A DNA stretch of 43,724 bases from an uncultured Methanosarcinales archaeon (GCA_964535955.1 CAZHVK010000010.1:1-43724), one strand, 5' to 3'. Positions 3,611 to 43,700 are shown, counted from the stretch's first letter. Translations and numbers: made by a program. The notes: generated by a model from the sequence alone, not told the origin.

Positions 3611-4585
3611 ATGACAAAAGAATTAGACAAAAAAGATTGGTTGATTTTAGACAAATTATGCGAGAATTCTCGTTTAAGTCATAATCAGATTGCAAAAGCT
3701 GTTGGTTTGAGTAAGAATGCTGTTGTTTATAGGATTGAAAGACTAAAGAAAAGAGGAGTGATTACTGGTTTTTTTACTGTTATAGATTATGAAGTGTTTG
3801 GTTATAGTTTTTATGAAGTATTGTTAAAAATACATGCTAATGATAAACAAGAAAAAGAGATTATAGAATGGCTTAAGAATCATGAGAATTTACTTGTTTT
3901 GGATAGAGTTCTTGGAGAGTGGAATTTTATAATGGAATTTGGTTGTAAAAATATTCATCAATTTTTTAAGATCATAAATGAATTTGAAGAAAAGTTTTCA
4001 GAGATTATTGATGTGTATGAAGTTCATCCTATTCTAAAAATTTATAATTTTGATGAACAATTGCCAATTGAATTAGTTAAAGAAACCAAATTAGAAGAAT
4101 CACATATTCATAAAGGTAATATTGAAATTGATGACACTGATAAAGAACTATTATTTGAATTAAACAAAGATTCAACCCAACCTTTGTATGTGTTAGGTGA
4201 TAAGTTGGGTCTAACATCTGAAACAATATCTTCAAGGATTAAAAAGTTAAAAGAAAAAGGAGTTATTATTAGATTTACTTCTAAGATTTCATTAAGAGGT
4301 ATTGGTTATGATTCTTATCTTGTTTTGTTGGACCTTCGTAAGTTGTCAAAAGAAAAAGAAGAAAGTTTTAGAGCTTATCTTAAGATGGATAAAAAGATAA
4401 GGTATGCATTTATGAGTGCTGTCATGCCAAAAGTATTTATCTATATTGCTGTCAAAGAGATTGAAGAACTGGATTTGTTCTTGAATAATATTAAGCATAA
4501 GTTTTCTGATATAATTGTTAATCAGAATTATTTGTTCTCTAAAGAACAGTTGAAGTATGAATTGTTTACAGAGGGGTTATTGTAA
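3611..4585 (+). CDS. Tandem (double) Lrp/AsnC-family transcriptional regulator
   Basis: Two AsnC HTH modules (LDKKDWLILDKLCENSRLS...RIERLKKRGVI and IDDTDKELLFEL...RIKKLKEKGVI), each followed by a RAM-like domain. Confidence 0.9.
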   Translation: MTKELDKKDWLILDKLCENSRLSHNQIAKAVGLSKNAVVYRIERLKKRGVITGFFTVIDYEVFGYSFYEVLLKIHANDKQEKEIIEWLKNHENLLVLDRVLGEWNFIMEFGCKNIHQFFKIINEFEEKFSEIIDVYEVHPILKIYNFDEQLPIELVKETKLEESHIHKGNIEIDDTDKELLFELNKDSTQPLYVLGDKLGLTSETISSRIKKLKEKGVIIRFTSKISLRGIGYDSYLVLLDLRKLSKEKEESFRAYLKMDKKIRYAFMSAVMPKVFIYIAVKEIEELDLFLNNIKHKFSDIIVNQNYLFSKEQLKYELFTEGLL

Positions 4586-21828: not shown

Positions 21829-21852
21829 TTGTTGTAGAATCTTCTACAACAA
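21829..21852. promoter_or_regulatory. Perfect inverted repeat (putative operator) between the TATA box and start of the TrmB gene
   Basis: TTGTTGTAGAA-TC-TTCTACAACAA; TATATAAA at 21818-21825. Confidence 0.7.
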
Positions 21853-22586
21853 TGAGTGAATACGAACTAAGGGTGATTTTAGAGAGATTTGGCTTAAGCA
21901 CAAATGAATCAAAAGTCTATTTAACACTATTAGAACTAGGAAATGCAATGGCTGGTAAAATAGCAAAACAAGCAATGATAGATAGAACATCATGTTATGA
22001 TGCATTAAAAAGATTATTGCAAAAAGGTCTTGTTGTTTATGTTATTGAAGCAAATAGAAAAATGTTTAAATCAGTGAATCCTAAAAGATTGCTTAGTATT
22101 TTAAAAGATAAACAAGAAGAAATTATGGAAATCATGCCTCAGCTTTCTTTAAAATATGAAAAAGAAAAAGAAGATTGTAATGTTACATTATATAGAGGGT
22201 CAAAAGGTGTAAAATCTGTTTTTGAAGATATTCTTAAAAATGCAAAAGGAAAACAAAATGATGTTATTGATTCAAGCGGAGCTTTTGTAAAAAGAATGCC
22301 TTATTTTTCAGAACATTTTATAAGAGGAGTTGAAAAAAATCAAATCAAAATAAGACACATCGTCAGAAAGGATGTAGATATTCATCCAAGTAAGACGACA
22401 AAAGTAAAATTTTTCTCTGAAAAAACAAAAGAAACAACTGTTACAACAAATATTTATGGTGATAAGATTGCAATAATCATATGGGCGACTATTCCTGAAG
22501 CAATAATCATTGAAAATAAAGGTGCTGCTGAAGCTTATAAAGATTATTTTGAGATTTTGTGGAATTCTGTTGATAAAGGAAGATGA
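21852..22586 (+). CDS. TrmB-family transcriptional regulator
   Basis: GLSTNESKVYLTLLELG...IAKQAMIDRTSCYDALKRLLQKGLV, YRGSKGVKSVFEDIL, IYGDKIAII and YFEILW. Confidence 0.92.
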   Translation: MSEYELRVILERFGLSTNESKVYLTLLELGNAMAGKIAKQAMIDRTSCYDALKRLLQKGLVVYVIEANRKMFKSVNPKRLLSILKDKQEEIMEIMPQLSLKYEKEKEDCNVTLYRGSKGVKSVFEDILKNAKGKQNDVIDSSGAFVKRMPYFSEHFIRGVEKNQIKIRHIVRKDVDIHPSKTTKVKFFSEKTKETTVTTNIYGDKIAIIIWATIPEAIIIENKGAAEAYKDYFEILWNSVDKGR

Positions 22587-22652: not shown

Positions 22653-23360
22653 ATGATGATTAAGCTTGATAAAAAACCAAAAGGAGTAACAATTATAGAG
22701 GGATTTCCAGGATTTGGATTGGTAGGAACAATTGCAACAGAATTCTTGATAGATCACCTAAAAACAGAATTCATAGGTAATATATGGTTAGAAGATTTGC
22801 CACCGATTGCGACAATACATCAGAGCAAGATAATCGAACCATTAGGTATTCATTATAATAAGAAATATAATATTGTATTGATACATGGGATTACAGCTGC
22901 AAAAAGAATGGAATGGAAGATTGCTGAGGCAATTTCAAAAATTGCCAAGATGTTGAATGCAAAGATGGTGATTAGTTTAGAAGGAATTGGTGCTCCTGGT
23001 ATGAAAACAAGTAATCTTTATTATTATTCAACAGATCCAAAGCTTAAGAAAGCTATGAATAAAAATGGTTTAAAACTGTTAAAAGAAGGGATTATCGTCG
23101 GTGTGACAGGTGCTTTATTATTAAAAAGAACCAAATTACCAATGTCATGTATATTTGCAGAAACTGCTTCAAATCTGCCTGATTCTCGTGCTGCTGCTAA
23201 AGTGATTACAGCTTTGGATAAGATATTTGGGTTTAAGATTGATACAAAACCTTTGATGAAGCAAGCAAAACAGTTTGAAGAAAAATTAAAGACTTTGTTA
23301 AAAGGTGCACAAGCTGCTCAGAAACAAGTTGATAAGAAACAGTTAGATTATTTTGGTTGA
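22653..23360 (+). CDS. PAC2-family proteasome assembly chaperone
   Basis: IIEGFPGFGLVGTIATEFL, GIIVGVTGALL, PDSRAAA and a C-terminal HbYX-like tail. SD GAGGTGA. Confidence 0.92.
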   Translation: MMIKLDKKPKGVTIIEGFPGFGLVGTIATEFLIDHLKTEFIGNIWLEDLPPIATIHQSKIIEPLGIHYNKKYNIVLIHGITAAKRMEWKIAEAISKIAKMLNAKMVISLEGIGAPGMKTSNLYYYSTDPKLKKAMNKNGLKLLKEGIIVGVTGALLLKRTKLPMSCIFAETASNLPDSRAAAKVITALDKIFGFKIDTKPLMKQAKQFEEKLKTLLKGAQAAQKQVDKKQLDYFG

Positions 23361-24618
23361 TTTATCGACGAGGAATTAGGTTTTTGTGTTTGATTTTTTT
23401 TCTTTGTTTTTTTAATTTATTTTTTTATTGTTTTGTTTTAGTTTCTTTTAATGTTTGTAATAATTTTTCTTGAAAATAGATTCTGTTTTTCTTATACTTG
23501 GAATGCAGAAAAAACATGTCAGAATTGCATTTTTTGTGTCTATTTATTTGGTTTATTTAAAAATCACTTTGTCGACGATAAAAGAGGCTTCTAGTATAGG
23601 GAAAAGTATACTGATTTTATAGTGCCTAACTCCAAGTCTCACTTTTTGTTGTTTTGTGTCACTTTTGTTTGTTGTTCATACTGGTTTATGCTTACTTTTG
23701 TATGAATTTTGATATTTGTATGTAATTTGTATATCCACTGTATATGGTTCTATGTAATGAAGCTCATCTACTATACAAATCACTCACTTTTGATTAACTT
23801 GTATAGTGTGAATATTTATTTTCATATTGGGCTTTGATAGAGTCAGGATAAGGCTTTTTTTTGATATTTTATGTATAAAAGGAGTTAATTTTAGACTTGT
23901 TTTTAGATCTAAAACCTAGGGTTTTTATGCTTGTTCTGAGGTTTATTTGAAAACCAAATATGAGAAGTACAAGGCTTAATCTCGAAGAATTCTTAAGAAT
24001 TAGCTTATTTCCACCTAGATTTTTCATATAGGAAAGTGAGACTTTATGTATGGCTATTTTTGATGATTTTTTTGCTATTTTTTGCATGTTTTTTTGCTTA
24101 TTTTTTGTTTATTTTTGATCCAGGTGTTGTGTGTGTTTGAATATGTTTTTAATGCATTTTATATTGGTTTTTGCTGTTACTATATATTAAACTCACTTTG
24201 TATCCTTAAGATCCTTTTTTTCAATATTGTAAATTATATAGTCTAATGATTATTTTGGAATTATTATGTTGTGATGATTATTTTGAAGTATAGAATATAA
24301 GTTTTTAGCTTTGCTAAATTGTTTTATGTTTTGATAAAAAGTTTTGATTATTCCTTTTTTTCTTAGTGATTAAAAGTTATAGTTTTTGATTAATAATTCC
24401 AATCGTGCATTTTCTTGATTTTGATTATAAATTGTAGTTATTAACTACTAATTTTAATCTTGTTGATTCTTGTTTTGATTGAATATTGCCATTATTATTT
24501 GTAAGTTTTAATCAATTTTTTGTTAATTTTTTAGTGTTTTTTGATTGTTTTTTGAGACATTTTTGTCAGTTTCTGATTGATTTTTTGGATGTTTTTTTCC
24601 TGATTTTCAGGTTGTTTT

Positions 24619-25557
24619 TTAATCATTTTCTAGGTTAAATGGTTGGTGTTTTTTAAGGTCTTCGCGAGCCATTTTATTAGATATTTCCATATAAATAAGG
24701 GTTGTCTGCAAAGACTTATGACCAAGCTGTTTGTTGATTGTCACAATGTTGACACCAGAATCAAGTGCATGAACAGCAAAAGTATGACGCAAAGTATGAG
24801 GGCTAATTCTTGAGATTTCTTGAAGTCCAGCAAGGACTGCATATTTTTTGATCATTTTTTGGATGCCACGAGGTGTGAATTTTTTGTTCCAATTGCTAGA
24901 AAATAAAGGACCTTTTTTTCTGGTTCCAATGTAAGCTTTGAGTGCCAAAATCAAGTCATCATCAACAATATTTACAATTCTATCTTTTCCACCTTTGCCT
25001 TGTACTACTTTGATAGTGTTGTTCTCAAAGTTCAAATGCTTGATTTCAAGGGATACAAGCTCTGAGATCCTCAATCCTGTATTGTAGAGAAATAGGATTA
25101 AGATCTTGTCTCTGTAGTTTTTTATGACTGAAATAAGGTTTTTCATCTCTTGCTTTGTAAGGTATTTGGGTAGTTTGTGCCTGTATTTTTTGTAGTGCTT
25201 TTTTGGTTGTTTTTGTATAGAATTTTGAGTGCCTTTAGTTGGTAGGCTAGGGTGGGTGGTGGGGGATTTTGGATGGTGGGCAGAGGCCTTCTGATGACTG
25301 GATTCTTGAGTTTTAGAGGGTTTGGTGGGTTTTGGAGGATTTGGATTTTGATGTTGTTTTTGTATAGGTTTTTGTTGATTTAGAAGTGTTGTTTTAGGGT
25401 GGGAGGGTGGGTTGTTAGAAGTAGATTTTGGTTGGATTTTGTGTGTGTTTTTGGTATCAAGATTTGGTTGGTGGTCTGATTGTGGATGATGGGATTCTTG
25501 ATTATGTTGTTGCTTGATTTTCTTGATTTTCTTGATTTTAGGATGATCTTTTTTCAT
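24619..25557 (-). CDS. Xer-like tyrosine recombinase: catalytic domain plus a low-complexity N-terminus
   Basis: LPKYLT, TGLRISEL (R), GKGGKDR (K), HTLRH, LGH and TTLIY (Y). The first ~120 aa are K/Q/P/H/S/T-rich. Start ATG 25557 (SD AAGGTG) or GTG 25569. Confidence 0.9.
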   Translation of the reverse strand: MKKDHPKIKKIKKIKQQHNQESHHPQSDHQPNLDTKNTHKIQPKSTSNNPPSHPKTTLLNQQKPIQKQHQNPNPPKPTKPSKTQESSHQKASAHHPKSPTTHPSLPTKGTQNSIQKQPKKHYKKYRHKLPKYLTKQEMKNLISVIKNYRDKILILFLYNTGLRISELVSLEIKHLNFENNTIKVVQGKGGKDRIVNIVDDDLILALKAYIGTRKKGPLFSSNWNKKFTPRGIQKMIKKYAVLAGLQEISRISPHTLRHTFAVHALDSGVNIVTINKQLGHKSLQTTLIYMEISNKMAREDLKKHQPFNLEND

Positions 25558-25672
25558 TGATTTTGGCACCTTTGCTTTGCTTAAAATTTTTAGGCATTAT
25601 ATCCTGTGAAATACATGAAAAAGTTCGTTTTTTCATGAGTTGATTAAATTCTTTAGTCAGTATTTAAAGGAA

Positions 25673-25700
25673 AGTTCTCATAATGTTAAAAATACGAACT
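25673..25700. other. Candidate dif-like recombination site (11-6-11)
   Basis: AGTTCTCATAA-TGTTAA-AAATACGAACT, ~115 bp upstream of the recombinase gene. The left arm is XerC-box-like; the right arm is an imperfect inverse. Confidence 0.35.
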
Positions 25701-26117
25701 TATATTTAAATTTTTTTATTTTCATATTTGATTGTGTTTTGGCTTGTTTTTTAGGAAATAGAAGGGCTAAAATTAGGCTGTTTTTTGGCATTTTTTTGAT
25801 TTATTCTGGCTTGGGAAATGATGTTGAAAATTTTGTAATTTTGATATGTAAATGGGATTTTCATACTGATTTGAGATAAAAGATGATGTGGTTTTTGGTA
25901 ATGTTTTTTAATGCTTTTTTTGATGTTTTTTTGAATATCTCGTCGAGAAACCAGGATTTATTTTCATACATGATCTGGTGTGATTTTTGTGTGTTTGTAA
26001 TTATTTTCATACACCCCAAGTAATTTTCAATGTATTTTTTGATTTGGATTTTCCCTAAAAATTTCTAGAATTATTTTCATACTTAACCTAATTTTGGATA
26101 AAACTTTTAATCAATAC

Positions 26118-26648
26118 TTAGAAGTTTGAGATCTGTTTTTGTTGGATCTTTACAAGGTTTTGTTTTGTTTGAAGTTCTTTGAATTTTTCTTCTAAAGCTA
26201 TCAATGGATTTCCATTTTTGTAAGTCTTTACTACTGGAATTCCTTTCTCAATAAGATTTGTTATGTAGCTTCTAACCAATGGTTCTGAAAGACCTATTTT
26301 CTCTGAGATCTCAAAGTATGAAATAGGTGAATTTGAGGTGTAGAGAGCCATAAAAGCCATTTTTTCATTAACTGACAATGGCTGAATTTCAATTTTTTCT
26401 TGCTCTATCTGTTTGAAAGATTCTTTATCATCTAAAAAAACCTCAACATTATCTAATCTTAATTTTAGTTTTTCTATTTTCTGATCCATTTCACGGATAT
26501 ATTCATAGTTAGCCTGGATTTCATTAGTATTTTCATTAATAGAGTCCAAATGACCATTTAATTCTTGTTTTAACCTGGAAATAAGCCTTTTAATTGCTTG
26601 TTTAAAACCATATTTTTCATTATTTAGTTTTTCTTGTTTCTCAGACAT
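26118..26648 (-). CDS. Coiled-coil plus C-terminal winged-helix DNA-binding protein
   Basis: Heptad-like region (HLDSINENTNEIQANYEYIREMDQKIEKLKLRLDNVE), then LSVNEKMAFMALY...ISYFEISEKIGLSEPLVRSYITNLIEKGIPV. ATG 26648 with TTTATAAA 25 bp upstream. Confidence 0.85.
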   Translation of the reverse strand: MSEKQEKLNNEKYGFKQAIKRLISRLKQELNGHLDSINENTNEIQANYEYIREMDQKIEKLKLRLDNVEVFLDDKESFKQIEQEKIEIQPLSVNEKMAFMALYTSNSPISYFEISEKIGLSEPLVRSYITNLIEKGIPVVKTYKNGNPLIALEEKFKELQTKQNLVKIQQKQISNF

Positions 26649-26745
26649 CTGCAAAATTAGGTAAGAAGGATGTTTATAAACTTATTTATTTTCATATATG
26701 GTTTAGTTAATTTTATACATGATTTAGTTAACTTTATACATGATT

Positions 26746-27489
26746 TTATACATGAGAAAGTTGTTTTGCAATGTATTTTTTTTCTTTTCCTTGAATTATA
26801 ACGTCGATAAAATCTTGTTTTTCAGCTTCTCTAAGCACTCTGTAGAATGTACTTTTTGAACACAAACCTTGTTCATCGACGATAATTTGCTTAAGTTGAG
26901 TACCAGATATGGATTCATACTTGGTGATGAGATTTAAAATCAGCTTTTTCACATACTCTTTTGAGTTTCTGGTGATAGATGTGTAGAGTTTGTCTTTAAC
27001 TGTCTTTTTAGGAGCTGATTTTGGCTGATTCTCGAGAATTTGAAGCCTAGAGCTCACCTCATGCAATTTGTTGATCACAGGTTTTGTGTGTGGTTTTTGG
27101 TTTAGTAAAGCTAATTCTATCTCTTGCAAACGCATTAAAATTGGACTATGATCATGGTCCATCATACTCATTTTATCGTGTAAATTTCTCACTTTTTGAA
27201 GCAAAAGATTATGTTTATTTTGTTGATTATTTGGTTGGTTCTGTATGTTCTGGATCTGGTTGTGCAGGTATGGTAAATAGGATAAATGCTGTTCTATCTG
27301 TCTTAATCTTTGCTCTGTTTCAAGAAACCTTTTGTCATGTTCGTCATGTTTTTTGTGGAAAAAAGATAACCACTCGACGACGTTTTGAACATCCTGCCTA
27401 ACATGATTGAAAGATGTCGTCAGAAAACTATTAATTTTTGTTAAACTTTTTTCTTGATTTTCCTTTTTATTTTTTTTGAAAAATAGCAT
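26746..27489 (-). CDS. Coiled-coil plus C-terminal winged-helix protein
   Basis: ATG 27489 (MLFFKK) with TATA ~25 bp upstream. C-terminal ILNLITKYESISGTQLKQIIVDEQGLCSKSTFYRVLREAEK is wHTH-like. Confidence 0.8.
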   Translation of the reverse strand: MLFFKKNKKENQEKSLTKINSFLTTSFNHVRQDVQNVVEWLSFFHKKHDEHDKRFLETEQRLRQIEQHLSYLPYLHNQIQNIQNQPNNQQNKHNLLLQKVRNLHDKMSMMDHDHSPILMRLQEIELALLNQKPHTKPVINKLHEVSSRLQILENQPKSAPKKTVKDKLYTSITRNSKEYVKKLILNLITKYESISGTQLKQIIVDEQGLCSKSTFYRVLREAEKQDFIDVIIQGKEKKYIAKQLSHV

Positions 27490-27540
27490 ATTATTTGTTA
27501 TAAAGTGGTGCTTATTAATAAATCTTTGGGTGATTTTAGG

Positions 27541-27675
27541 ATAGTCCCAGGATGATTGTGGGACTATTGTGGGAATGAGAAATGTAGGAAGAGTGGCTAA
27601 TTCTCGAGAATACAAGAGAATCATAGTCTCAGGTGGGACTATGGTGGGACTATAATGGGACTATGATGGGACTGA
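27541..27675. repeat. Iteron-like TGGGACTAT array
   Basis: Direct copies at 27559, 27634, 27645, 27656 and 27667 (the last four 11 bp apart); inverted copies at 27541 and 27623. Confidence 0.85.
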
Positions 27676-28097
27676 CTATGTTGAAGGTGAGGGAAATACT
27701 GTGTCTTAGGATAAGGTTCATGATGATGAGATTTTTTTGATATTTTTGATGATTAAAAAAATAAATTTTTTGAAAAATAAAAAAAATTGTGGAATGATAT
27801 ATTTTGTGTGTTCTTGAGAATATGATAAAAATGTCTCATTTTTAGAGTATTTTTAGGTGTTTTTTAGATCCATATAGGATAAAACAAAGTCCAAAGTGAG
27901 TGTAAAATAAGGTATAAATAAGCAGATTTTTAACAGGATTATGAAAATAGTGCAAATAGGGTGAAAATACTAGAAAATCATAATATGAAAGTGAGATATG
28001 AAATATGCTATATTATGCTGTTTTTAGTGGTAAAAGCTTAAACAAGCCTATACAGGACTATATAGGTTAATTGTAAGTAGTAAAGTGAGGATTGTAT

Positions 28098-28185
28098 ATA
28101 GGGATTATATAGGGATTACATATGGTTTGTATAGGGATTACATAGGGATTACATATGGTTTGTATAGGGATTATATAGGAATATT
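28098..28185. repeat. 11-bp tandem array ATAGGGATTA(C/T) with a 33-bp higher-order period
   Basis: Units at 28098, 28109, 28120*, 28131, 28142, 28153*, 28164 and 28175 (* = variant ATATGGTTTGT). Confidence 0.9.
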
Positions 28186-28439
28186 ACTTGATTTAAGGCT
28201 TTATATTGATTTTACTATATGATTTTGTGGAAAAGTGAGGGTCTGCTAATGATATAGTGCTAAAATAAGCTGATCTTTGATATAATACATGATCTGATGT
28301 AGGGATATATATATTTATATAGGGAATTACTAGTAAAGTGAGAGTTAAGCATATTTTTGTATATTTTGGTGTGTTTGAAAATTGTCTAATATAAAAAAAA
28401 GATAGGTTAATATATGGAATGAAGATTAGATATGTAAAA

Positions 28440-29096
28440 ATGAGTGTTATAAGGTCTAAAAAGCAATTATCAATTGTTTTAAGTCGATTAAAAACATTTG
28501 AAAATAGTAAAGTGAGTCTTGAACAGTATTCTACTGATTCTGAGGTAGGTGCTTCTCTCTTGTGGAACGCCACTTTATTAGATTTTATCGACGATAAAAC
28601 AGTTTTAGACTTGGGTTGTGGTACTGGCATACTGGGATTGGGTGCTTTGTTTCTCGACGCTGATAAAGTTTTCCTCGTCGATAAAGATAAGGATGCTTTG
28701 GATGTATTAAAGGAAAATATCAAGTTTATCGACGATAAATATTTTAAAATTAATAAACAAAAGTATAAGATTATATGTAAAGATATTCAGGTATTGGATG
28801 TTGTGGATTTGGATAAGATGAAAATTGATCTTGTTATTATGAATCCTCCTTTTGGTGTTAAGAATAAACATGCTGATAAAAAGTTTTTAAAAGTTGGTTT
28901 CTCGACGAGAAAACCAGTTTATTCTATACATAAAGTTGAATCTCGTAAGTTCTTGGAAAAGTTTTCTGCTGATAATGGATATAAGTTAACACATTTTTGG
29001 GAAATGGATTTTCCTTTGAAAAAAAGTTATTCATTCCATAGGAAACCTGTTAAGAAGATTAAGGTTTGTGTCTGTAGGTTTGTTTTTTCTGGTTGA
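28440..29096 (+). CDS. METTL5-family N6-adenine RNA methyltransferase
   Basis: LEQYSTD, VLDLGCGTGILG, MNPPFG, HADKKFL, YSIHK and YSFHRK. Start at ATG 28440 preferred from TATA spacing (track: 28419). Confidence 0.9.
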   Translation: MSVIRSKKQLSIVLSRLKTFENSKVSLEQYSTDSEVGASLLWNATLLDFIDDKTVLDLGCGTGILGLGALFLDADKVFLVDKDKDALDVLKENIKFIDDKYFKINKQKYKIICKDIQVLDVVDLDKMKIDLVIMNPPFGVKNKHADKKFLKVGFSTRKPVYSIHKVESRKFLEKFSADNGYKLTHFWEMDFPLKKSYSFHRKPVKKIKVCVCRFVFSG

Positions 29097-29209
29097 TTGT
29101 TTTTAATTCTTTATTTAATTATTTGTTTGATATTTCATTTGTTTGGTTGTAACTATTTAGTAGTAATTTATAGAAAGGTTTATATATTAGTTTGTGGTTT
29201 CCATTATAT

Positions 29210-29344
29210 ATGGTTATGGATAGCAATTATCACAATAGAACTCTTATAAGAATTGATGAATATCTAGATGGTGCTCTCAAGAGACTAGAAGAATATAATA
29301 AGGAATCACACAAAGAAGAAGAAAAAGAAGTTTCTGAAGAATAA
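29210..29344 (+). CDS. 44-aa small protein (not in the ORF track)
   Basis: MVMDSNYHNRTLIRIDEYLDGALKRLEEYNKESHKEEEKEVSEE*, preceded by BRE/TATA GAAAGG-TTTATATA at 29173-29186. Confidence 0.55.
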   Translation: MVMDSNYHNRTLIRIDEYLDGALKRLEEYNKESHKEEEKEVSEE

Positions 29345-29398
29345 ATTTACTAATTTTATAGTCGAGGGATGGGTAAAAAACACAGGTGAAGTATTAGT

Positions 29399-30112
29399 AT
29401 GAAACTTAATGTCAATAAGTTAAAAAAAGAACAGCTCAAACTTGCAAAAAAGATTATTCTTAAAGATAGTTTTGATGAGATTAAGTTAATTGGTGGTTGT
29501 GATCAAGCTTTTTATGAAAATAAGATTATTTCTATGGTTATTGTTTTTGATAATAATGGCAAACTAATTGAAAAAAAATATGCTATTAAAGATGTGACAA
29601 TACCTTATGTTCCTGGGTTTTTAGCTTATAGAGAAATGCCTGCTATACTTGAAGCCTTTAACAAACTAGAAAATAAACCAGATATTCTTTTATGTGATTG
29701 TAATGGAATTCTTCATCCTCGTAAAATTGGAATGGCTAGTCATCTTGGATTAATACTAGAAGTGCCTACAATAGGTGTTGCTAAAAACAAATTACTTGGT
29801 GTTATTGATGAAGATAAAAAAATAATTTATAATGACCATGTATTGGGGTTTGAAATAGGTACTAAAGAACATGCAAAACCCATATATGTAAGTCCTGGGC
29901 ACATGATTTCTATGAAAAGTTCTGAGAAGATTGTTAAAGAATGGTTAAAAGGACATAAAACACCTGAACCCTTACATGTTGCTCATAAATTTGCTAACAG
30001 AATTAAGAAGAATTTAAAGGAAAAGAATAAGGAAAAAACTGTGGAAAATAATATTGGTGTTGTTGAAGGTCCTGTTAATGATATTGATGTTAATCAGGAA
30101 ATAAAAGAATAA
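29399..30112 (+). CDS. nfi: Endonuclease V
   Basis: GGCDQAF, PYVPGFLAYRE, CDCNGILHPRKIGMASHLG, PTIGVAK and PIYVSPGH. Confidence 0.95.
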   Translation: MKLNVNKLKKEQLKLAKKIILKDSFDEIKLIGGCDQAFYENKIISMVIVFDNNGKLIEKKYAIKDVTIPYVPGFLAYREMPAILEAFNKLENKPDILLCDCNGILHPRKIGMASHLGLILEVPTIGVAKNKLLGVIDEDKKIIYNDHVLGFEIGTKEHAKPIYVSPGHMISMKSSEKIVKEWLKGHKTPEPLHVAHKFANRIKKNLKEKNKEKTVENNIGVVEGPVNDIDVNQEIKE

Positions 30113-30210
30113 CATTTATAAACAATCTGTGAAAACATACTTCTTAGGTGATTATATATGGAAATAAACTCACTGACGTTCGTAATTTCCATTTTTCACG
30201 GAGGTTCAAA

Positions 30211-30486
30211 ATGGAAATAAATGTTATTGAAAGGTCAAAAAATAGAATTATATTTGAATTAAAAGGTGAAGATGATAGTTTTTGTAATGCTCTAAAAGAT
30301 GAATTATATAATGATTCTAATGTTAAAATTGCATCTTATAGAATAGACCACCCTTTGATTAATATTCCTAGATTTATTATAGAAGTTAAAACAGGAGATG
30401 CAAAAAAAACCTTGGTTGATGCTGCTAAAAGACTTAAAAAAATGTCTGTTACATTTCATAATGAGTTTAAAAAAGTAGCCAAGTAA
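30211..30486 (+). CDS. rpoL: DNA-directed RNA polymerase subunit L (Rpo11)
   Basis: FELKGEDDSFCNALKDEL...ASYRIDHPL. ATG 30211 behind SD GGAGGT. Confidence 0.92.
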   Translation: MEINVIERSKNRIIFELKGEDDSFCNALKDELYNDSNVKIASYRIDHPLINIPRFIIEVKTGDAKKTLVDAAKRLKKMSVTFHNEFKKVAK

Positions 30487-30488
30487 AA

Positions 30489-31082
30489 ATGTTTTCTTTA
30501 ATACAAGGTAAAAGATTAATAAAATTAGCTCGTAATAGTATTGAAAGTCATCTTTTTCATAAAGAATTTAAGATTTCTACTACTGTTGTTGAAGAATTTG
30601 GTGATAGATTAGGTTGTTTTGTTACTCTTACTATTGATGGTGAATTGAGAGGGTGTATTGGTTTTCCAGAACCTGTTTATCAATTGTTTCATGCTATTAA
30701 AGATGCTGCTGTTAGTGCTGGATTTTCTGATCCAAGGTTCTTGCCTTTGAGTAAAGAAGACTATGCAAAAGTTATGGTGGAGGTTTCTGTGTTAACAAAG
30801 CCTGAGTTGATTAAGGTTGAAAAGTCTTCTGATTATTTTGGACATATAAAGATTGGAAGAGATGGCCTGATTATTAGATCTGCTATGGGTGTTTCTGGAT
30901 TATTATTGCCTCAAGTCTTTACTGAGTATAATTGCAATCCTGAGCAAGCTTTGCGCATGGTTTGTCAAAAAGCTGGGTTGAATATTGATGCTTGGAAAGA
31001 TATTTCTAATAAGATTTATAGGTTTAGTGGTCAGATATTCAAAGAGACCCCTTCAGGCGTAGTGGAAGAAAAATTAGGTTAG
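30489..31082 (+). CDS. AMMECR1-domain protein
   Basis: GCFVTL, LRGCIG, AGFSDPRF, EVSVLTKP, GRDGLII, GLLLPQV and CQKAGL. Confidence 0.95.
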   Translation: MFSLIQGKRLIKLARNSIESHLFHKEFKISTTVVEEFGDRLGCFVTLTIDGELRGCIGFPEPVYQLFHAIKDAAVSAGFSDPRFLPLSKEDYAKVMVEVSVLTKPELIKVEKSSDYFGHIKIGRDGLIIRSAMGVSGLLLPQVFTEYNCNPEQALRMVCQKAGLNIDAWKDISNKIYRFSGQIFKETPSGVVEEKLG

Positions 31083-31340
31083 TTTTTTTGTGATTTTAGT
31101 GGTGTGTTTTTTAATATTTTAGTATACATATTTGTATACTGATTATCGACGATAAACATAGTGTCAGAATATAGGGTTTTTATGGTGCCTAACTTAGATT
31201 GGAAATATTTTGTTAAAATACATTCAAACACAAAACTTTAAAAACAAATCATGTTTTCCAATATATAGCTTATAAGTCAGTTATTGATTTCTAAGTACAG
31301 ATAGATAAATAAAGAAAAAAACAAAGAAATAAATAGAAAA

Positions 31341-34798: not shown

Positions 34799-37700
34799 AT
34801 GAATAAGGTTATTAGTAAATGGAAGTTGGTAATGTTTATGATCTTGTTAGTTGTTGTTTTTTATGTTAGTTTTACTTTAGCAGTAAGTTCAGAACCTTCA
34901 TCTGACTTGGAATGGAAAGCATTAGGAAGAACATTGAACAATACAAGATACACTCCAAGTGCTGCTCCTGAAAACATGTCTTTAGAAACAGTGATTACAT
35001 TTACTGCACCTTTTAATGTGTTGTATGGTCTAATTTCAGATGGTCAAAATCTTTATACTCACACATACAGTACTAGTCAATATTCTAAAGAAGGAGTGAT
35101 ACAATTAAATCTTTATAATATAAGTCAAGAAGTAAATAATGTTACTATTGCTTATCAAGCTGGAACAAGCTGTGTTGCAGATGATTATGTGTATGCAATA
35201 GGTGGTTATAGTGGAACTGTTTATCAATATAATAGAGATGATCTATCTTTAGTTGGATATAGCACTCATCCTAGTGGTACTTCTGCTAGTTGTATTGTCA
35301 GTGATGATTTTGTGTATCATGGTGATTGGCAGAGCGGCATCATAGGACAATTGAATTATACAAATATATCTATAGAAAATGATTTTTACAGTGCTTATAG
35401 ACATGATAATGGTATGGCTATTGTAGGTGATAGACTTTATTCAGCTGGGCTTAATAGTATAATAGTTATTAATACTTCAGGTATGAATTCTATACAAAGT
35501 GTTGCTCCAGGAACTGGTTATGAAGATGGAGATCATGCAGTGATTGCAAATGGACATTTTTATGCAATGTATCCTGATGCTGGAGACGATACTTTGACTT
35601 TTATTTTTCATAGAAATGCTACTGATATAACACAATCGTTTAGTGCTGGTTATACTTTAGCAGGGGCTGCATATAATGCTCCTGCTTATGCAAATGGTTA
35701 TCTTTATGTTGGTGCATCAGACGGAGTTTTATATCAATTAAATGCATCAAACATAACTATACAATTTTCTAATTTCACATCAGGTGGTGCAATGAGTGGA
35801 ACAGGACCAGCTGTTAATGATGAATATGTTTTTATAAATAGTAATGATGGTAATTTTTATCAATTAAATGCTTCAGATGTAAGTCAAGAAATTGCAAGAT
35901 ATAATCATGGCGGTACTGCTTATGCAGATCCTATAATTATTGACGGAGCTGTTTATTTTGGAGCAAGCTCAACTATTTATCAGCTTGGAATTCCGAATAC
36001 ACCTAAAATCACCTTGAATAGTCCTGCTGATGAATATGAATTTTCAGCATCTTCTGAATCTATAACTTTTAACTGCTCTGCTACAGATAATGAGCAATTA
36101 GTAAATATTAGTTTATACATAACTGGTGAAGATAATAATGATTTTATTTTGAATCAGACAACAAATATTTCTGGATTATCAAATGAAAGTACTTGGACTT
36201 TAACATTGCCAGAAGGTAATTATACATGGAATTGTTTAGTACAAGATAATGGTAGTAATTTTGGTTGGGGAACTAATCAAACATTAGTGCATGATATAAC
36301 AAACCCTTCGCTTGATTTTGTTTCACCTACTTTGTCAAATGGAACTTTTACAACCTTGACAACACTTGAAATAAATGTAACAATAACAGAAAGAAATTTA
36401 GATAAGTTAATCTATGATTGGAATGGAACTAATTATACTTTGTATAATGATTCTTTAGTTTTGATGATGAATTTTGATAATATAAGTGCTTTAGGTGAGA
36501 ATGAAACTTATGTTGTTGATGTAAGCAATAATGAATTTCATGGAATTGTTAATGGAGCAACATGGACAAATTCTAGTAAATATAATGGAGGTTTTGATTT
36601 TGATGGTACTTCAGATTATGTAAATAATAGTATGATTAATCTATCAAATGATGAAATTACAATTGCTGCATGGATTAAAGCAGATAGTTTTCAGGCAGTT
36701 TCGCCTTTTATCTCAACTTTAGCTGGAATTGAAGAAGGTACTGCTGGAAATACTCAAACTGCTTTAATTAGGTTTGGTGATGCAAGTCTTGCTAAAGAAA
36801 AAATGCAATTTGTCTTAGCAAATACTGAAGGAGGACAGGTAAAATTAGATGGAACCACAACACTTCAAACAAATACATGGTATTATGTTGCTGCAACTTA
36901 TAATGGTTCTGATATGCAACTTTACTTAGATGGTGTTTTAGAAACTTCAGATTCAGGATCTATTTCAGGAGGTATTCAAGCAAATGGTAATTTTTATGTT
37001 GCTTATAGCAATGGTGGAAGATACTTTGACGGATTAATCGATGAAGTTAGAATCTGGAACAAAAGTTTATCAGCAAAGCAAGTTTACCAAGAATATGTTT
37101 CTAATCTAAGAAAATATGATATAGATAAATGGGTGTTATATGTTAATCAAAGTTTTAATGCTACACAAATCTTACCTGATGGAAGTTATAGTTTTCAGTT
37201 TTATGGTGAAGATTGGAAATCTAATAAAGGTTTTTCAGAATTAAGAGAAATGACAGTAGATACTCGTGATCCTGAGTTTACAAGCATTGCTAACCAAACA
37301 ATTGAATATGATACTACAACTGGTTTTGAGATAAATGCAAGTGATAATATTGATGTTCAATGTTTTGATATAAATGATACAACAAAGTTTACTATTAATT
37401 GTACTGGATATGTAGAAAATAATACTTGGCTGGATATTGGGCTTTATGGGTTAAATATTAGTGTGAATGATAGTGCTGGAAATTATAATCATAGTATTAT
37501 GTGGGTTAATATTTCTGACACATTAGAACCTGGTTTTTCAACTATAACTAATCAATCTATTTTTGATCAGGATGCATTTGGTTATGATATTGATGCTAGT
37601 GATGATTATAATGTAAGTTGTTTTGGATTAAATGATTCTACTAATTTTAAAATCAATTGTTCTGGTTATCTTGAAAATAATACTTATCTAGATGTTGGGT

Positions 37701-40700
37701 TGTATGGATTGAATATTAGTGTAAATGATTCATCTGGTAATCATAATTTTACAACAATGTGGGTAAATGTTTCTTATAAACCTGTAATTGGATTAGAAGT
37801 TACAACTCCTAGTGAAAATGTGAATGTGTCACAAAATGAATTATTTACAGTAACTGTAAATGTAAGTTGTACAAGAGCTGATTGTAGTGAAATTGAAGTT
37901 AGTCTAGATCCTGCAGTAGATTATACTGATACATCTCCTTATTCTTCTGTATCTGCAGCACTAAATTGTAAAGAAAGTGGTTCTGGAACAGTAGATAGTT
38001 GTGCAGATGGTAGTAGTTGTACTTATCCATTCCAAGTAGATTATATGTATATTGAAGATTTAAATAATACTGTGTTTACAGGAGGAGATACTGTTGAAGT
38101 AACTTTAACTGCTCATACAGGATGTTGCAGTCCAGATGCTGTATGGGCTTATTCAAATGAAACTACTGGTGAAAGCAATTTTAGACAAGTAGGACGTACA
38201 GTTAATATTGCTACTGGAACTGTAAATTATTCAAAAACTTTTGTTTTAGATGATGTTGAAGGTAATCATACAATAAGGGGAGTCAATATTTATAGCGCTG
38301 CATCAACATCTTTATTATGTGGTTATGATGAATCTTCTGGAGCAACATATTCAGATACTGACGATGTTATAATCTATGTTGAAGAATCAGGTGGAACAAA
38401 AAGTGGATTAGTTTCAACAACAGTAGGCACAACTCCTTTTTATACAAATACTACAAATCCATATAATCTTTCTTTGAACAATGGTTCATCAGCAACAATC
38501 ACTTGGTATGTAAATGCAACTGGATCTCTTGATGAGATTTATGAATTCTTTGTATATGCAAACCAAACATCTGATTTATCAGTAAGTAATCAATCAAACA
38601 AATGGAATACAACAATCGTGAGTGGAGACGATGAAAGTCCTCCAACAATTACACTAGATCTTCCTGCTGTTAATACTAATTATACAATCAATGTTAGTTC
38701 TATTAATTATTTTGCTAGTGATAATTTTGATTTAAGCTTGTGTTGGTATACAACTGATCTAGGTGTTACTAATTCGAGTCTTGAAGCTGCTAATACTAAT
38801 TTTTCTAATATTCAAAGTGTAGAAGGATGGAATAATTGGACTGTTTATTGTAATGATAGTTCTAATAATATTGGTAATGGGAGTTCTAGTTTTTTTAAGG
38901 ATAATATCTTCCCAGGATTTGGTGTTGTGAGTAATCAGACAAATGAATTAGGTAGTAGTTTTAGTTATGACATTGATGCTAGTGATAGTAATGGAATTGG
39001 TTGTTTTTATGTGAATGATACTACTGTCTTTGCTATTAATTGTAGTGGATATTTATATAATAATACTTTTTTGAGTTTTGGATTGCATGAGTTGAATATA
39101 AGTGTGAATGATTCTATTGGTAATATTAATTCAACTTTAATGTTTGTTAATGTGACTGATACTACTGCTCCTTATTTTACAGATGATGTTGTTGTTGACC
39201 AGGTTGTGGAATATGGAAATACTTTTGGTTATGATGTAAATGCAAGTGATTTAGGAAATATTAGCTGCTTTACTGTGAATGATACTACTAATTTTGTGAT
39301 TAATTGTACAGGATATCTAGAAAATGTTACAACATTAGGTATTGATGTGTATAATTTGAATATTACTATAAATGATACTACTAATAATCTAAATTCAACA
39401 ACAATGTTTGTTAATGTAACTGATACAACTGCTCCTAATTTTACTAATATTGAAAATCAAACAATTTCTGTTGGAGCAAGTTTAAGTTATGATATAAATG
39501 CAAGTGACCTGTCTGGTGTAAGTTGTTTTTATGTAAATGACACTACTAATTTTGCAATCAATTGTACTGGTCATTTGTCAAATAGTGTTTCATTGAGTAC
39601 TGGTATTTATAATTTGAATATTACTGTGAATGATACTATTGGTAATATGAATTATATGTATATGTGGGTTGAGGTTGAAACTTCTGTACCAATTGCATTG
39701 AATTTTACAGATCCAACACCTGTAAATGCTAAAACACAATCAGAAACAAATGTTGAGATAAATGTTTCTGTTGTTGGAGAAGGTATTGATAATATTGTGT
39801 ATAATTGGAATGGAACTAATTATAGTATGTATAATGATTCTTTAATGCTTATGATGAATTTTGATAATATTTCTTCATTTGGTGAAAATGCAACTTATGT
39901 TGTTGATGTAGCTAGAGGAAATAATGGCACTACAATTAATGATGTGGTGATTAATGACTCAGGAAAGTATGGTGGTGGTGCGCATTTTGATGGAGTAAGT
40001 GATTCAATTAATGCAGGTACTGATGCAAGTTTGAATATCACAGGACCTGTTACTGTTTCAGCCTGGGTTTATGCATATGCTTATGGTCCTTCTGATCATT
40101 CACATATAGTAGGAAGAACACCTTCTGACCTAGGAGCTTATGCTAATGTAAATTATTACATTGGTTTAAAAACAAGAGATCCTATATTTATTATTGCAGA
40201 TACTTCTACAGGTGTTCAATGTACAGATACAACAGATCTTCCTCTTAAGACATGGACACATATCATAGGTACATGGGATGGTACAACTAATGCTGGTGGT
40301 GTAAAGTTGTATACAAATGGTATTTTAACTGATAGCCAGACATCACCAATAACTGCTATTGCTGGAACTTCAACTAATTTCTACATAGGAACAAGTGATA
40401 ATTCATTTGAATTCAATGGAATAATAGATGAAGTTCGTGTATGGAATAGAAGTTTGAGTGCAGGTGAAGTTTATCTTCAATATGTTTCTAATCTTCAGAA
40501 GTTTAATAATACATTATGGAACTTGTATGTTAACCAGAGTTTTAATGCTAGTCTTGGGTTAGATGATGGTAATTATACTTATCAAGTGTTTGGTTTTGAT
40601 GGTTCTGGTAATTCAAACCAAACAGAGCAAAGAATCTTAACAATTGATTCTAGCATACCTGGTTTTACTGATTTTGAAAATCAAACAATAGAATATGGTA

Positions 40701-43700
40701 ATGATCTTGGTTATGATGTGGATGCAACAGATTCAAATGGTGTTGATTGTTTTACTGTTAATGATACTACTAATTTTGCTATTAATTGTAGTGGTTACTT
40801 AGAAAATAGTGTTATATTAAATGTTGGTCTGCATTGGTTGAATATAAGTGTTAATGATACTATTGGTAATATTAATTCTAGTATTCTGCTGGTTAATGTT
40901 ACACCAAGTCTTATTGTTAATTGTGAAGCAGGTGGTGCTTATCAACAAGATGCCCTTGTGTTGGTTCAAGGAAACTTAAGTGATGGTAATTCTAGTCTGT
41001 CTGGGCAAGTTGTTAATGTTAGTGTTTATGATTCTTCAGGTAATAGGGATGGGTTTGCTAATCTTACAACTGCTGATGATGGTGGTTATGAAACAACATT
41101 TTCTGATCTAGTAGCTGGTAGTTATACATTAAATGCTTCTGCTTCTTATTCTGGAAAAAATAAAACCTGTGTTGATACATTTTCAATCGGCAGTGCTGCT
41201 TCACTTGTGCTTGATAAGATTGTAACATTGTATAATATGTCTAATTCTTCAATTTATTATAATGTTTCATTAAAAGTTATTAATATAGGTGGTGGTGATG
41301 CAAGTTCTGGTAATCTTACTGATGCTAATTACGGTTCATTTGATATTGGAACTATTAGTGGTAATTCAAGTGTTGTTAGAGGTTATTTGAAAGAATTTGT
41401 TAGAAATTCTACAACTTATAATATTAGTTTGGCTGTTGCTAGTGTTAATGCAACTGATTCTTATAGTGGAAATGAGTTAAGGGTTAATTCTAGTGAAGTT
41501 GAGATTGTTGTACCTTCTGCTCCTGTTGACCAACAAGTAACATTAGTAAAAAATGTTTATTATAATTCTGAAAATTCAACACATGTTAATTATACATTAA
41601 CAATTGATTTTGTTAATTCTGGTGGACAAGATCTTGTATCTATAACTATTCTTGATTCTGATATTAACCTGAATACATTGATAGGTCTGAATAGGTCTGG
41701 AAATTATACTTATACTGATTCAATAACAGTTGAAAAAGCTGCTTCAAATACTAATAAGTTGTTTGTAAGATCAACTGCAACTGTTAATTCTGTAACCTAT
41801 AGTTCAAACCAAATAAGGGTTAGGATTCCGGGTTATGGTGGGCCTGCAGATGCTATTGTTGATGCACCTGCATCTGTGCAAGCATCAACTGATTTTGATA
41901 CTGTTATAACTGTTGCAAACCAAAACACAGACATTGGACAGGATTTTATAGTTGATTATTGGATAAGTAATAATGCTGAAACAACTAATTATACATCTGG
42001 ACAACAGACAATATATGTTGCTGCTTCTGGTGAAACTGATCTTACTGCAACATTAAATTCACCCTCATCATCAGGAACTTATAGGTTTAGAGCATTAGTC
42101 ACATGGGTTGGTGGAACTGCTACTGCTTTTGAATCTTTTACAGTGACTGCTGTTGCTAGTGATGATGATGAAGAAGAGAATGAAGGAGGATATGGTGGTG
42201 GAGGTGGTGGCAGTGGTCCTGTTACTGTGCCTGAGCCTGAAGAAGTTCCAGAAGAAAAAGAAATAATTCCTGATGTTCCAACAGATGAAGAAGATAAAAC
42301 AGCAGAAACACCATCTGGCCTATTGCCTGAATTAGGAACCGGGTTTGTTATAAAGATTGATGAGATTATTCCTGAAACAAAAGAAGAAGCTGAAATATTA
42401 ATAGAAAATATTGAAGAAAAAATAGAAAAAATTGAGGAAAAAATTCAAGAACTTAATTTAGAAAAACAAAGTTATAAATCAGATCAAATAAAAGCAAAAC
42501 TGGGTGAGATTAAAAAATTAGTTGCAGATGGAAAAATACAAGAATCTAATGAATTATTATCTTCTTTAATTAATGAATTGTATTTATTAGAATCTGATGT
42601 AATTGTTAAAGAAAAAGAGATTGAAAAACCAACATCTACTTATGATTATTCTACAACTAAAGATCCTTTGATTAGGATAATGATTTATATGTTGTGTTTT
42701 GTGATTATTGCTGTTGTTTTAGTAAAAGGTTTGAATTTAAGAGGAACAATCTTTGGTGTAAGTTTTGGACATGAACAGCAAAGAATAATCCAAAAAAGAG
42801 AAATAATTACTAAGCCAATGGTTAGACAAAGAGAAATAATATTTAAAGAACCTATTGAAGCAAAGAAGAAGTTTTCCTTAAAAAAAATAAAGATGTTTTT
42901 TGGTAAATTCAAAAAACCATATAAAAAGATTCAGCCAAAACAATTAAGAAAGGATCTTCTAGAGATAACAAGAGGCCAAGAAATAAAAGCATTAGAAGCT
43001 TATGGGTTTAAAGTTGTGATCAAAGATAAAGAACAACACAAAAGAAGATCAAATTTTATAACTCATACTAAAAACATAATAAAAGATGTTACTAAAGAAA
43101 AAGAAAAGTATGTTAAAAAATCTAAAAAAGAGATTATGAAATATAAAAAAGGTTTTTCAGGCATTCTTAGTGGTTGGTTCTCAGGATTAAAGAAAAAGAC
43201 TGAACAAGTAGAAAAAAGTATTGATAAATTTAGAAAGACAACTATAAAAGAAGATGTTGATAGGTTAAAAGCTTATGGATTTAGTGTTGTTGGAAAGGAT
43301 AAAAAAGAACAAAAACTAGAAGATAAAAGAGAAGAAATAGAAAACCAAATAGAAGAAAAAAAAAGAAAAAGAAGAGAAGAAGTGGAAAAAAGAAAAAGAG
43401 AAAGAATAGAGAAAGAAAGAAGAAGGAGAATGGAAGAAGAAGAGAGGAAAAGAGGGATAATTTGGCAGCAAAGAAGAAGAAGAGATAAAGAAGAAGATAA
43501 AAAAATAGAGAAAGAAGAAAAAAGAAGAAGAAAAAGAGAGGAGGAAGAAGAGAGGAAAAGAGAGAAAGAGGAAAAAGAAAAGCAAAAGAGAGAAAAAGAA
43601 GAAGAAAGGAAAAGGGAGAAAGAGGAAAAAGAAAAGCAAAAGAGAGAAAAAGAAGAAGAAAGGAAAAGGGAGAAAGAGGAAAAAGAAAAGCAAAAGAGAG

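Follow-up and report, generated by a model that had tools for sequence, protein, structure and literature searches.

Described counterparts of a clustered chromosomal site include matS of the E. coli Ter macrodomain, whose copies are spread over about 800 kb and whose partner MatP is a ribbon-helix-helix protein, and datA of E. coli, where clustered DnaA boxes titrate DnaA or render it inactive. Further analogies, of the operator kind, are offered by DnaA boxes in general and by the MCB and E2F boxes of yeast. DPANN archaea are tiny, often symbiotic and for the most part uncultivated, and we know of no account of how they control replication, chromosome segregation and division. As far as the accessible parts of the sources describe them, small ribbon-helix-helix cell-cycle regulators include aCcr1, with its boxes in Sulfolobales (PMC9976878), and CdrS of Haloferax (PMC8406309). 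In Thermococcus kodakarensis, according to the accessible text of the source, a domain boundary lies in a 1.9-kb gap between convergent genes at dif and requires TrmBL2, a member of the TrmB family, as well as the underlying DNA (PMC11840125). The element described here is a 15-bp palindrome, TTT[A/C]TCGWCGA[T/G]AAA, that is concentrated in about 8 kb of a contig of 43,724 bases (CAZHVK010000010.1 of assembly GCA_964535955.1), the whole of which is called the window below. The site-dense locus, or hub, encodes two winged-helix proteins (ccwHTH1 and ccwHTH2), an XerA-like recombinase and a small methyltransferase. We give an even chance to the reading in which a replication and division regulon uses the palindrome as an operator-type site and has its hub at this locus, which would probably regulate itself or titrate its regulator.

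Distribution of the palindrome

The window is one contig (C10) of a focal genome, G000, that comprises 1,490,602 bases in 31 contigs and is 100% complete. Three relatives from the same genus are referred to as G001, G002 and G003. The 15-bp consensus was derived from an alignment of sites, and its core, TCGWCGA, occurs exactly ten times in the window, always within 23365-31152. Three near-matches keep both CpGs intact (Table 1). In 100 dinucleotide-preserving shuffles of the window, the core appeared 0.05 times on average and never more than once. This count and the shuffles confirm an earlier note on this DNA, which had reported ten exact cores and three near-matches confined to 23.1-31.2 kb. 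The same note had estimated the GC content at 27% and the expected number of sites at 0.3 per 8 kb. The window measures 29.2% GC (29-30% for the genome), and the expectation was too high rather than too low because CpG is strongly depleted across the genome, with an observed/expected ratio of 0.19. At the genome's own TCGWCGA rate, simple arithmetic yields about 0.115 sites per 7.8 kb.

The whole assembly contains 22 exact cores, ten of them in the cluster, and thus the sites are unevenly spread over the genome, as had been anticipated. Similarly, 14 of the 71 genome copies of the shorter CGWCG fall in 23096-31147. The regional rise in CpG is explained by the motif, which itself supplies these dinucleotides. 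Scores from a position weight matrix (PWM) reach 5.5 at the 95th percentile of random windows and 10.3 at the 99th, and the highest score in the genome belongs to the site at 28902.

Three exact matches on contig C6 are unrelated to the palindrome family. They lie in a series of at least seven tandem paralogous genes (C6:43463-49161; about 260-280 codons each), all of which begin with MAIDDAI, and three of these carry TCGTCGA in their first codons (GCA TCG TCG ATT, on the other strand).

Four public DNA runs yielded contigs that span this DNA, and most long pieces show 0 differences from the window, although the best-matching runs may be the very sample behind its assembly. Among the runs listed as carrying the stretch, none is an RNA run. 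Contigs from runs X3 and X4 join 28599 to 23592, the flanks of the sites at 28588 and 23572, with eight other letters between them. This joint is probably DNA of another organism with two close motif copies.

Selection on the DNA within genes

The methyltransferase gene contains four exact cores and one near-match, and the gene at 26746-27489 (ccwHTH2) contains two exact cores and one near-match, as the earlier note had placed them. That note had also claimed that the sites use scarce codons, and this holds for G000, where the motif codons TCG and ACG each make up 0.8% of those for their amino acids (serine and threonine), CTC 2% of leucine, GTC 6.3% of valine, ATC 13% of isoleucine and GAC 17% of aspartate codons. 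Ten of the 13 CpGs in the methyltransferase gene fall inside its five sites.

In a codon alignment of this gene from the four species of the genus, core positions are identical in 32 of 35 cases, compared with 414 of 616 positions elsewhere. At third codon positions, the corresponding figures are 7 of 10 and 99 of 207. The encoded proteins are 78-83% identical among the genus genomes, and in G001 the core is kept at two of the sites while the amino acids FIDDK change to SLDEK or SLDEG. Conservation of the core through amino-acid changes, together with the rare codons, bears out the proposal that selection acts on the DNA. The hub clearly illustrates how a signal in the DNA can take precedence over codon choice within a housekeeping gene, and this is seen in several lineages. 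In the non-coding stretch after PAC2, each genus species has two or three sites at differing positions. Therefore, it is the number of sites that is maintained there, and not their exact places.

Conservation of the hub in the genus and the order

Gene order and cluster are both shared with the three same-genus genomes. The G002 hub holds 8 of the 23 sites in its genome within 5.3 kb, and these are the sole sites on a 275-kb contig. The G003 hub accounts for 8 of 18 sites, and that of G001, on a 7.8-kb contig, for 5 of 19. The palindrome is thus present at the orthologous winged-helix and recombinase locus of relatives, where the earlier note's reading called for it.

Such a hub is also present in other families of the order, at least seven in number. 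Examples are G004 (3 of 8 genome sites in 5 kb), G021 (3 of 13 in 1.4 kb), G012 (5 of 39 in 4.4 kb), G035 (2 of 6), G124 and G138 (four sites each), and G161, which has eight sites in 4.6 kb at a locus without CpG depletion (observed/expected 1.12). The order-wide gene order is PAC2, recombinase (not always present), ccwHTH1, ccwHTH2 (likewise), methyltransferase, RpoL and AMMECR1. No enrichment of the palindrome is seen at the orthologous locus in G019, G028, G031, G034, G007 and G023, and extended sites are absent genome-wide from G019 and G020. G025 was not counted as a hub; its five locus sites have poor flanks, and its genome contains 79 sites.

The extended motif is common to distant families and G000. 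A PWM built only from 26 sites of distant families finds 16 matches of at least 14 bits in G000, of which nine are in the cluster, including nine of the top 12. At least one TTNTCGWCGANAA occurs in 153 of 201 sampled genomes; this tally takes in three genomes flagged as unpublished (G114, G134 and G184), of which the other claims are independent. In motif-rich genomes, TTNTCGWCGANAA far outnumbers a non-CpG control pattern (40 versus 2 in G106, 20 versus 4 in G097, 18 versus 1 in G181 and 12 versus 0 in G161), and its sites there are distributed among numerous contigs. In genomes that lack TCGWCGA, the hub and the region upstream of ftsZ were searched for another palindrome common to both, and only AT-rich noise was returned.

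Sites beside replication and division genes

Outside the hub, four places in G000 are conserved in G002, and nine other G002 sites, which have poor flanks, are not. One conserved place (C7:70326) is 331 bp upstream of ftsZ1, and another (C21:994) is in the promoter of an acetyltransferase-fold gene (-89), where it has a one-mismatch partner. The remaining two are C8:39247, at the 3' end of a gene that encodes a membrane protein and converges with sppA, and C14:32626, which is inside a gene. Together with the sites at 25940 and 31146 in the hub, the ftsZ1 and C21:994 sites are the upstream-of-gene placements in G000.

Every genus genome has the ftsZ1 site, at -331 to -338. Elsewhere, sites precede or adjoin ftsZ1 in G012 (-350), G021 (-845, -599 and -388), G011 (-304 and -293) and G004 (+10), and 7 of 38 ftsZ1 upstream regions fetched from other genomes contain one. 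G161 (-223) and G148 have such a site as well. Sites upstream of gyrB occur in G004 (-61), G161 (about -20) and G097 (-225 and -65), and RFC genes are adjoined by sites in G004 and G021. G021 also has a site at -127 from TFB. G161 provides the richest set: a site at -13 from gyrA, directly after scpB and hence between the two genes, others at -87 from an XPD-type helicase gene, -326 from an operon for an ATP-cone protein and ribonucleotide reductase (RNR) and -125 from a TrmB-type regulator gene, and one inside PolX. Six of the 12 extended sites of this genome are upstream of or inside gyrA, gyrB, ftsZ1, XPD, ATP-cone/RNR or PolX, and three more are in its hub. Counted over the order, ftsZ1 recurs in six families and gyrB in three, joined by gyrA, RNR, XPD, TFB and RFC. 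Because sites in relatives lie upstream of replication and division genes, the pattern is operator-like.

The palindrome would accordingly be recognized by a Woesearchaeales DNA-binding protein that is sequence-specific and probably dimeric, and would act as the operator of a small regulon across the order that may include ftsZ1, gyrB, gyrA, RNR, XPD, RFC and TFB. The 8-kb cluster would be the hub of this regulon, and its conserved PAC2 - XerA-like recombinase - ccwHTH1 - ccwHTH2 - methyltransferase locus probably encodes the binder. In the genus studied here, the hub appears to have gained many sites, some of them in coding sequence, and to hold most of the good sites in the genome, so that it may serve as a sink through which the protein is titrated or regulates itself. 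The palindrome offers a concrete, testable cis-element for DPANN archaea, together with a shortlist of target genes (ftsZ1, gyrase, RNR, RFC and TFB).

Three further features were observed at these loci. Between the palindrome and ftsZ1 of G000 (C7:70149-70218; L062, about 4150-4220), four of the 21 genome copies of TTGGCGRA are packed into 70 bp. This is a second, separate CpG-containing element, and its shape (TTTTGGCGAAAA) resembles that of E2F-type boxes. Divergent from ftsZ1 is a gene for a tyrosine recombinase of 437 residues (C7:70491-71804), and therefore both the hub and the ftsZ1 site adjoin a recombinase gene. The gyrB gene of G004 (L115, G004:C96) matches an intein-splicing domain.

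Genes of the hub and candidate binders

Window genes were labeled with Pfam and NCBIfam, and the features of the hub are collected in Table 1. Further neighbors encode endonuclease V, RpoL, AMMECR1 and a DEAD-box helicase. In the recombinase, about 170 residues match across the order, and the gene is found beside ccwHTH1 in many genomes. The N-terminal third of its open reading frame (ORF) is of low complexity, rich in proline, lysine and histidine, and may not be translated here. Full-length XerA-like genes of G000 are located on C25 and C7. ccwHTH1 might supply DNA binding in trans to this recombinase with only a catalytic domain.

Table 1. Genes, palindrome sites and repeat arrays of the hub, in window coordinates
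Feature	Position	Strand	Remarks
TrmB-family regulator	21852-22586		
PAC2	22653-23360		
Tyrosine recombinase	24619-25569	-	XerA-like paralog; catalytic domain alone matches (187 bits; cut-off 220 bits)
ccwHTH1	26118-26648	-	72-residue N-terminal helix and winged helix; candidate binder
ccwHTH2	26746-27489	-	Coiled-coil-like N-terminal part and C-terminal winged helix with invariant LCSKS; candidate binder
Small class-I SAM methyltransferase	28419-29096	+	NPPF motif; candidate METTL5 according to the earlier note
Near-match TCGTCGG	23095-23101		Inside 3' part of PAC2 gene
Exact site	23365-23371		5 nt past PAC2 stop codon; PWM 19.0 bits
Exact site	23572-23578		In 1.26-kb gap between convergent PAC2 and recombinase genes; PWM 21.6 bits
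Exact site	25940-25946		371 bp upstream of recombinase ORF start; PWM 20.6 bits
Near-match ACGTCGA	26801-26807		3' part of ccwHTH2 gene
Exact site	26876-26882		ccwHTH2, codons for I-I-V-D-E of conserved winged-helix region
Exact site	27374-27380		ccwHTH2, codons GTC GTC GAG (V-V-E); kept in 4/4 genus genomes; poor flanks
Exact site	28588-28594		Methyltransferase gene, F-I-D-D-K; G001 keeps core despite S-L-D-E-K
Near-match TCGACGC	28654-28660		Methyltransferase gene, L-D-A; identical in 4/4 genus genomes
Exact site	28675-28681		Methyltransferase gene, L-V-D; kept in 3/4 genus genomes
Exact site	28729-28735		Methyltransferase gene, F-I-D-D-K; TCCCTCGACGAGGGA in G001; lost in G003
Exact site	28902-28908		Methyltransferase gene, TTC TCG ACG AGA; identical in 4/4 genus genomes; PWM 23.6 bits
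Exact site	31146-31152		64 nt past AMMECR1 stop, 195 bp upstream of DEAD-box helicase gene; also in G001
AAAGTGAG left group	23638-24199	-	Reverse copies at 23638, 23783, 24192; one forward copy at 24033
TGGGAC(T) array	27543-27673		11-bp period; direct and inverted copies (TGGGAC-N-GTCCCA); beside ccwHTH2 start
AAAGTGAG forward array	27893-28516	+	Six copies: 27893, 27988, 28082, 28232, 28335, 28509
TATATAGGGAT array	28095-28179		7.7 copies, 11-bp period; expanded in this genome only

The two adjacent coiled-coil winged-helix proteins are plausible candidate binders, since both combine a winged-helix DNA-binding domain with long helices suited to dimerizing. Of 41 genomes sampled from the order, 35 encode ccwHTH1 and 24 encode ccwHTH2, and homologs of the two proteins are named only as hypothetical or winged-helix proteins of Woesearchaeota and Nanoarchaeota. 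In a structure model of ccwHTH1 (predicted local distance difference test score 83), a helix of 72 residues is followed by a linker and a winged helix, and a fold search with this model returned generic MarR/ArsR/Sso10a-type winged helices only (best E 1.2e-3). A profile search (E <= 1e-10) adds 524 unnamed relatives to its family. An atlas look-up of ccwHTH2 returned hypothetical proteins only. Profile-profile comparison shows no relation between the two proteins, and a predicted complex of both scored 0.04, where the mark is 0.32.

Good-flank sites near the locus occur in six of seven distant genomes with ccwHTH2 and in one of 13 without it; G138 has a hub, and the fetched piece of its genome contains no ccwHTH2. 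When recognition helices of ccwHTH1 are compared with motif presence, the only difference is Y-I-[TM] versus Y-V/L, and this is confounded by relatedness. That one of the two hub proteins binds the palindrome is rated at slightly under an even chance. Both candidates are small and soluble, and recombinant production gives access to them without cultivation of the organism. The TrmB-family gene of the window was also considered as a source of the binder and was rejected because it has no close ortholog within the genus (best identity 34%).

tRNA and Rfam scans of the window gave 0 matches. Beyond the hub, a giant open frame of at least 2,975 codons (34799-43723), which encodes Ig-like and LamG domains, continues past the end of the contig, where a purine-rich 54-bp tandem repeat (43294-43724) probably broke the assembly.

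Other repeats in the hub

The divergent gap of 929 bp between ccwHTH2 and the methyltransferase gene (27490-28418) contains several repeat families and an AT-rich tract. Of the 30 genome copies of AAAGTGAG, 11 are in 23638-28509, mostly in reverse orientation to the left of the recombinase and winged-helix block and in forward orientation to its right. AAGTGAG copies, spaced 50-220 bp apart, have this opposed layout on the two sides of the block in at least ten other genomes. A forward AAGTGAG array is present at +1100 to +1900 from the ccwHTH1 start in all ten ccwHTH2-bearing genomes examined, and in G004 and G021 it lies within the methyltransferase coding sequence.

TGGGAC arrays with a period of 10-11 bp recur beside ccwHTH2 in G012, G016, G018, G019, G035, G161 and G124. 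They were not found in G004 or G021, nor in any of 13 genomes without ccwHTH2. These repeats are likely to be the binding array of ccwHTH2 itself. The hub is a composite, ancient DNA-protein locus in which the palindrome is one layer among several.

In the short gap upstream of ccwHTH1 (26682-26746), there are three tandem repeats of 21 bp (TTAGTTAATTTTATACATGAT), with related copies at 25956, 26068 and 28276. Duplication of promoter elements may account for them.

Segregation, origin and recombination signals

The earlier note had likened the palindrome to parS and matS and proposed that it is bound by a dimeric chromosome-organizing protein. The symmetric 15-bp site does fit a dimeric binder, but the parS/matS analogy fares less well. 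ParB_N (PF02195) has 0 matches in G000 and is found in 10 of 14 control genomes. The sole ParA/MinD-type ATPase of G000 (AAA_31) is at C1:421-846, on another contig, and none of the 30 window ORFs scanned encodes a ParA-type ATPase. Neither hub protein has a ribbon-helix-helix domain according to Pfam, although no search with a MatP model was made. Likewise, 8 kb is not a macrodomain, and the sites of relatives, 13-350 bp upstream of ftsZ1, gyrB, gyrA, RNR, XPD and TFB, disfavor this analogy.

The single orc1/cdc6 gene is on contig C3 in G000, apart from the cluster, and the two are also on separate contigs in G002 and G003. The assemblies are fragmented; in G002, at least 124 kb separate the cluster from each contig end. 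The orc1/cdc6 upstream region (C3:93523-94284, L102) spans 760 bp and is the likely canonical origin; it includes about 85 bp made up of A and T only, as well as several TTTTCCA repeats. It also contains a 13-bp perfect inverted repeat and an apparent intron-split tRNA gene. To our knowledge, the periodic arrays and AT-rich tract of 27490-28418 bear no likeness to ORB elements. There is no GC-skew switch at the cluster, but because skew mostly follows gene orientation in G002 (C1), it is uninformative for an origin or terminus. A scan for dif (TAA-N6-8-TTA) yielded no convincing example and one weak candidate at 26100, which matches at 9 of 11 positions, at 8 of 11 in G002, and is absent from G003. 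Xer and integrase core sites consist of two inverted arms of about 11 bp around a spacer of 6-8 bp, and the palindrome, with a center of 1 nt, does not have this form.

Alternative readings of the cluster

Several observations weigh against an operator function. Six exact hub sites are in coding sequence and two are between convergent genes, and thus most are not at promoters. Two of the four conserved outlying sites (C8:39247 and C14:32626) are at the 3' end of or within a gene, and only the ftsZ1 and C21:994 promoters bear sites outside the hub in G000. Its gyrB gene has only a one-mismatch TCGACGG at -108 (PWM score 6.8), and no site is found at its gyrA, scpB, XPD or PolX genes. Among the 38 regions upstream of ftsZ1 that were retrieved from other genomes, 30 have no exact site. 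The recurrence of gene neighbors was read by eye from few sites, with no randomization, in related genomes that are not independent samples. As for the candidate binders, G019 and G020 carry both proteins and have 0 extended sites, the LCSKS of the ccwHTH2 winged helix is invariant regardless of motif presence, and the AAGTGAG and TGGGAC arrays follow ccwHTH2 more closely than TCGWCGA does.

The extreme density of sites, most of them coding or otherwise outside promoters, might instead reflect a chromosome-organizing cluster that resembles a centromere, parS or matS, or an SMC boundary. A coiled-coil winged-helix protein would there nucleate a complex that positions or insulates the chromosome, and outlying sites would be secondary. 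Such a role would suit the turnover of positions at maintained site number between convergent genes, the TGGGAC and opposed AAGTGAG arrays that flank the winged-helix genes in an architecture kept in at least 12 genomes, the long helices of both proteins, the XerA-like recombinase gene conserved within the hub and the G161 site between scpB and gyrA. The domain boundary of Thermococcus kodakarensis, as described in the accessible text, is a further parallel (PMC11840125). However, the lack of ParB_N in the genome and of a ParA-type ATPase in the window, the location of orc1 on another contig and the absence of a skew switch all speak against an organizer, as do the full-length XerA candidates elsewhere and the want of a convincing dif. 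Moreover, sites in motif-rich relatives are scattered, often directly upstream of replication and division genes. An organizing cluster is thus considered unlikely. An origin or iteron region that does not use an adjacent orc1, with the palindromes as accessory sites, is very improbable. The 929-bp divergent gap with its AT-rich tract and two arrays of 11-bp period, and the inverted motif arrays that flank genes for DNA-binding proteins, recall such a region, and Sulfolobus oriC3 depends on the winged-helix protein WhiP. Yet the single orc1/cdc6 has its own upstream region with AT stretch and repeats, no skew change marks the hub (with the reservation for G002 given above), the arrays extend into coding sequence in G004 and G021, and the palindromes spread over 8 kb.

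Several copies of the palindrome are perfectly symmetric, and G001 has changed both flanks of one site symmetrically (TCCCTCGACGAGGGA). These features, and the recombinase genes inside the cluster and beside the ftsZ1 site, could suggest a DNA or RNA hairpin, a cruciform or the target of the adjacent tyrosine recombinase. However, only 7 of 25 sites from distant families and 6 of 10 local ones have complementary positions on the two sides of the core, which is not covariation, and sites occur on either strand relative to transcription. In addition, the 1-nt center leaves no room for the 6-8-nt crossover spacer that Xer and integrase core sites need, and the contigs of the four DNA runs show no well-supported inversion or excision joint. 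A structural or recombination element accordingly has only a slight probability. A chance cluster, a compositional island or recent foreign DNA that escapes CpG avoidance has practically none. A CpG-tolerant insert would stand out in such a strongly CpG-depleted genome, but none of 100 shuffles reaches two sites, the CpG excess is the motif itself, the genes are housekeeping genes in order-wide synteny with sites at the same codons in four species, and the cluster recurs in G161, where the locus is not depleted of CpG.

A reading that joins regulation and organization would see the hub as a novel archaeal chromosome control centre. Two unrelated ccwHTH proteins, an Xer-like recombinase reduced to its catalytic domain and three repeat families (the palindrome, TGGGAC iterons of 11-bp period and opposed AAGTGAG arrays) would build one large nucleoprotein complex that organizes or segregates the chromosome and also, through titration of the protein that binds the palindrome, times the expression of ftsZ and replication genes. 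This proposal is speculative and on balance improbable. If it were true, the hub would be the DPANN counterpart of parS/ParB and datA/DnaA in one.

Comparison with known systems

No description of the motif, of either protein family or of such a hub was found in the full-text literature searched, which leaves out most subscription journals. One bacterial likeness is to parS/ParB, which shares a palindrome of about 16 bp, a few to a few dozen copies per genome that are mostly within a few kb, and the presence of some copies inside genes, here including the gene region of the presumed binder. Unlike parS, the palindrome has an unrelated sequence and is not accompanied by ParB_N or an adjacent ParA, its cluster is on another contig than the orc1 origin candidate, and in relatives it is often at promoters of replication and division genes. 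With matS/MatP, the element has in common a short, odd-centered palindrome, the expectation of a coiled-coil binder, a link to division and, in the cluster, a gene for an Xer-type recombinase. In contrast to matS, the cluster occupies only 8 kb, no other copy is present on the 275-kb G002 contig, and the candidate binders are winged-helix proteins.

The datA locus is comparable in that one place on the chromosome gathers many binding sites of a regulator whose operators are otherwise dispersed. It differs in protein, motif and domain of life, and titration in the hub is only inferred. Operator systems of other archaea offer a second comparison. Like the elements of aCcr1 and CdrS, the palindrome is a short conserved element that precedes division and DNA-synthesis genes across related genomes. 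The accessible parts of these sources (PMC9976878 and PMC8406309) describe no site-dense hub, whereas here the densest cluster is a single, largely coding locus.

The Thermococcus boundary, as far as the accessible text of PMC11840125 describes it, resembles the hub in its long gap between convergent genes, its connection to Xer and its dependence on both a winged-helix nucleoid protein and the DNA sequence. It differs in that it is formed by TrmBL2, which is rather unspecific, and not by a defined palindrome. No dif was identified at the hub. Finally, TrmBL2 belongs to the TrmB family, and the TrmB gene of the window is without a close ortholog even in its own genus.

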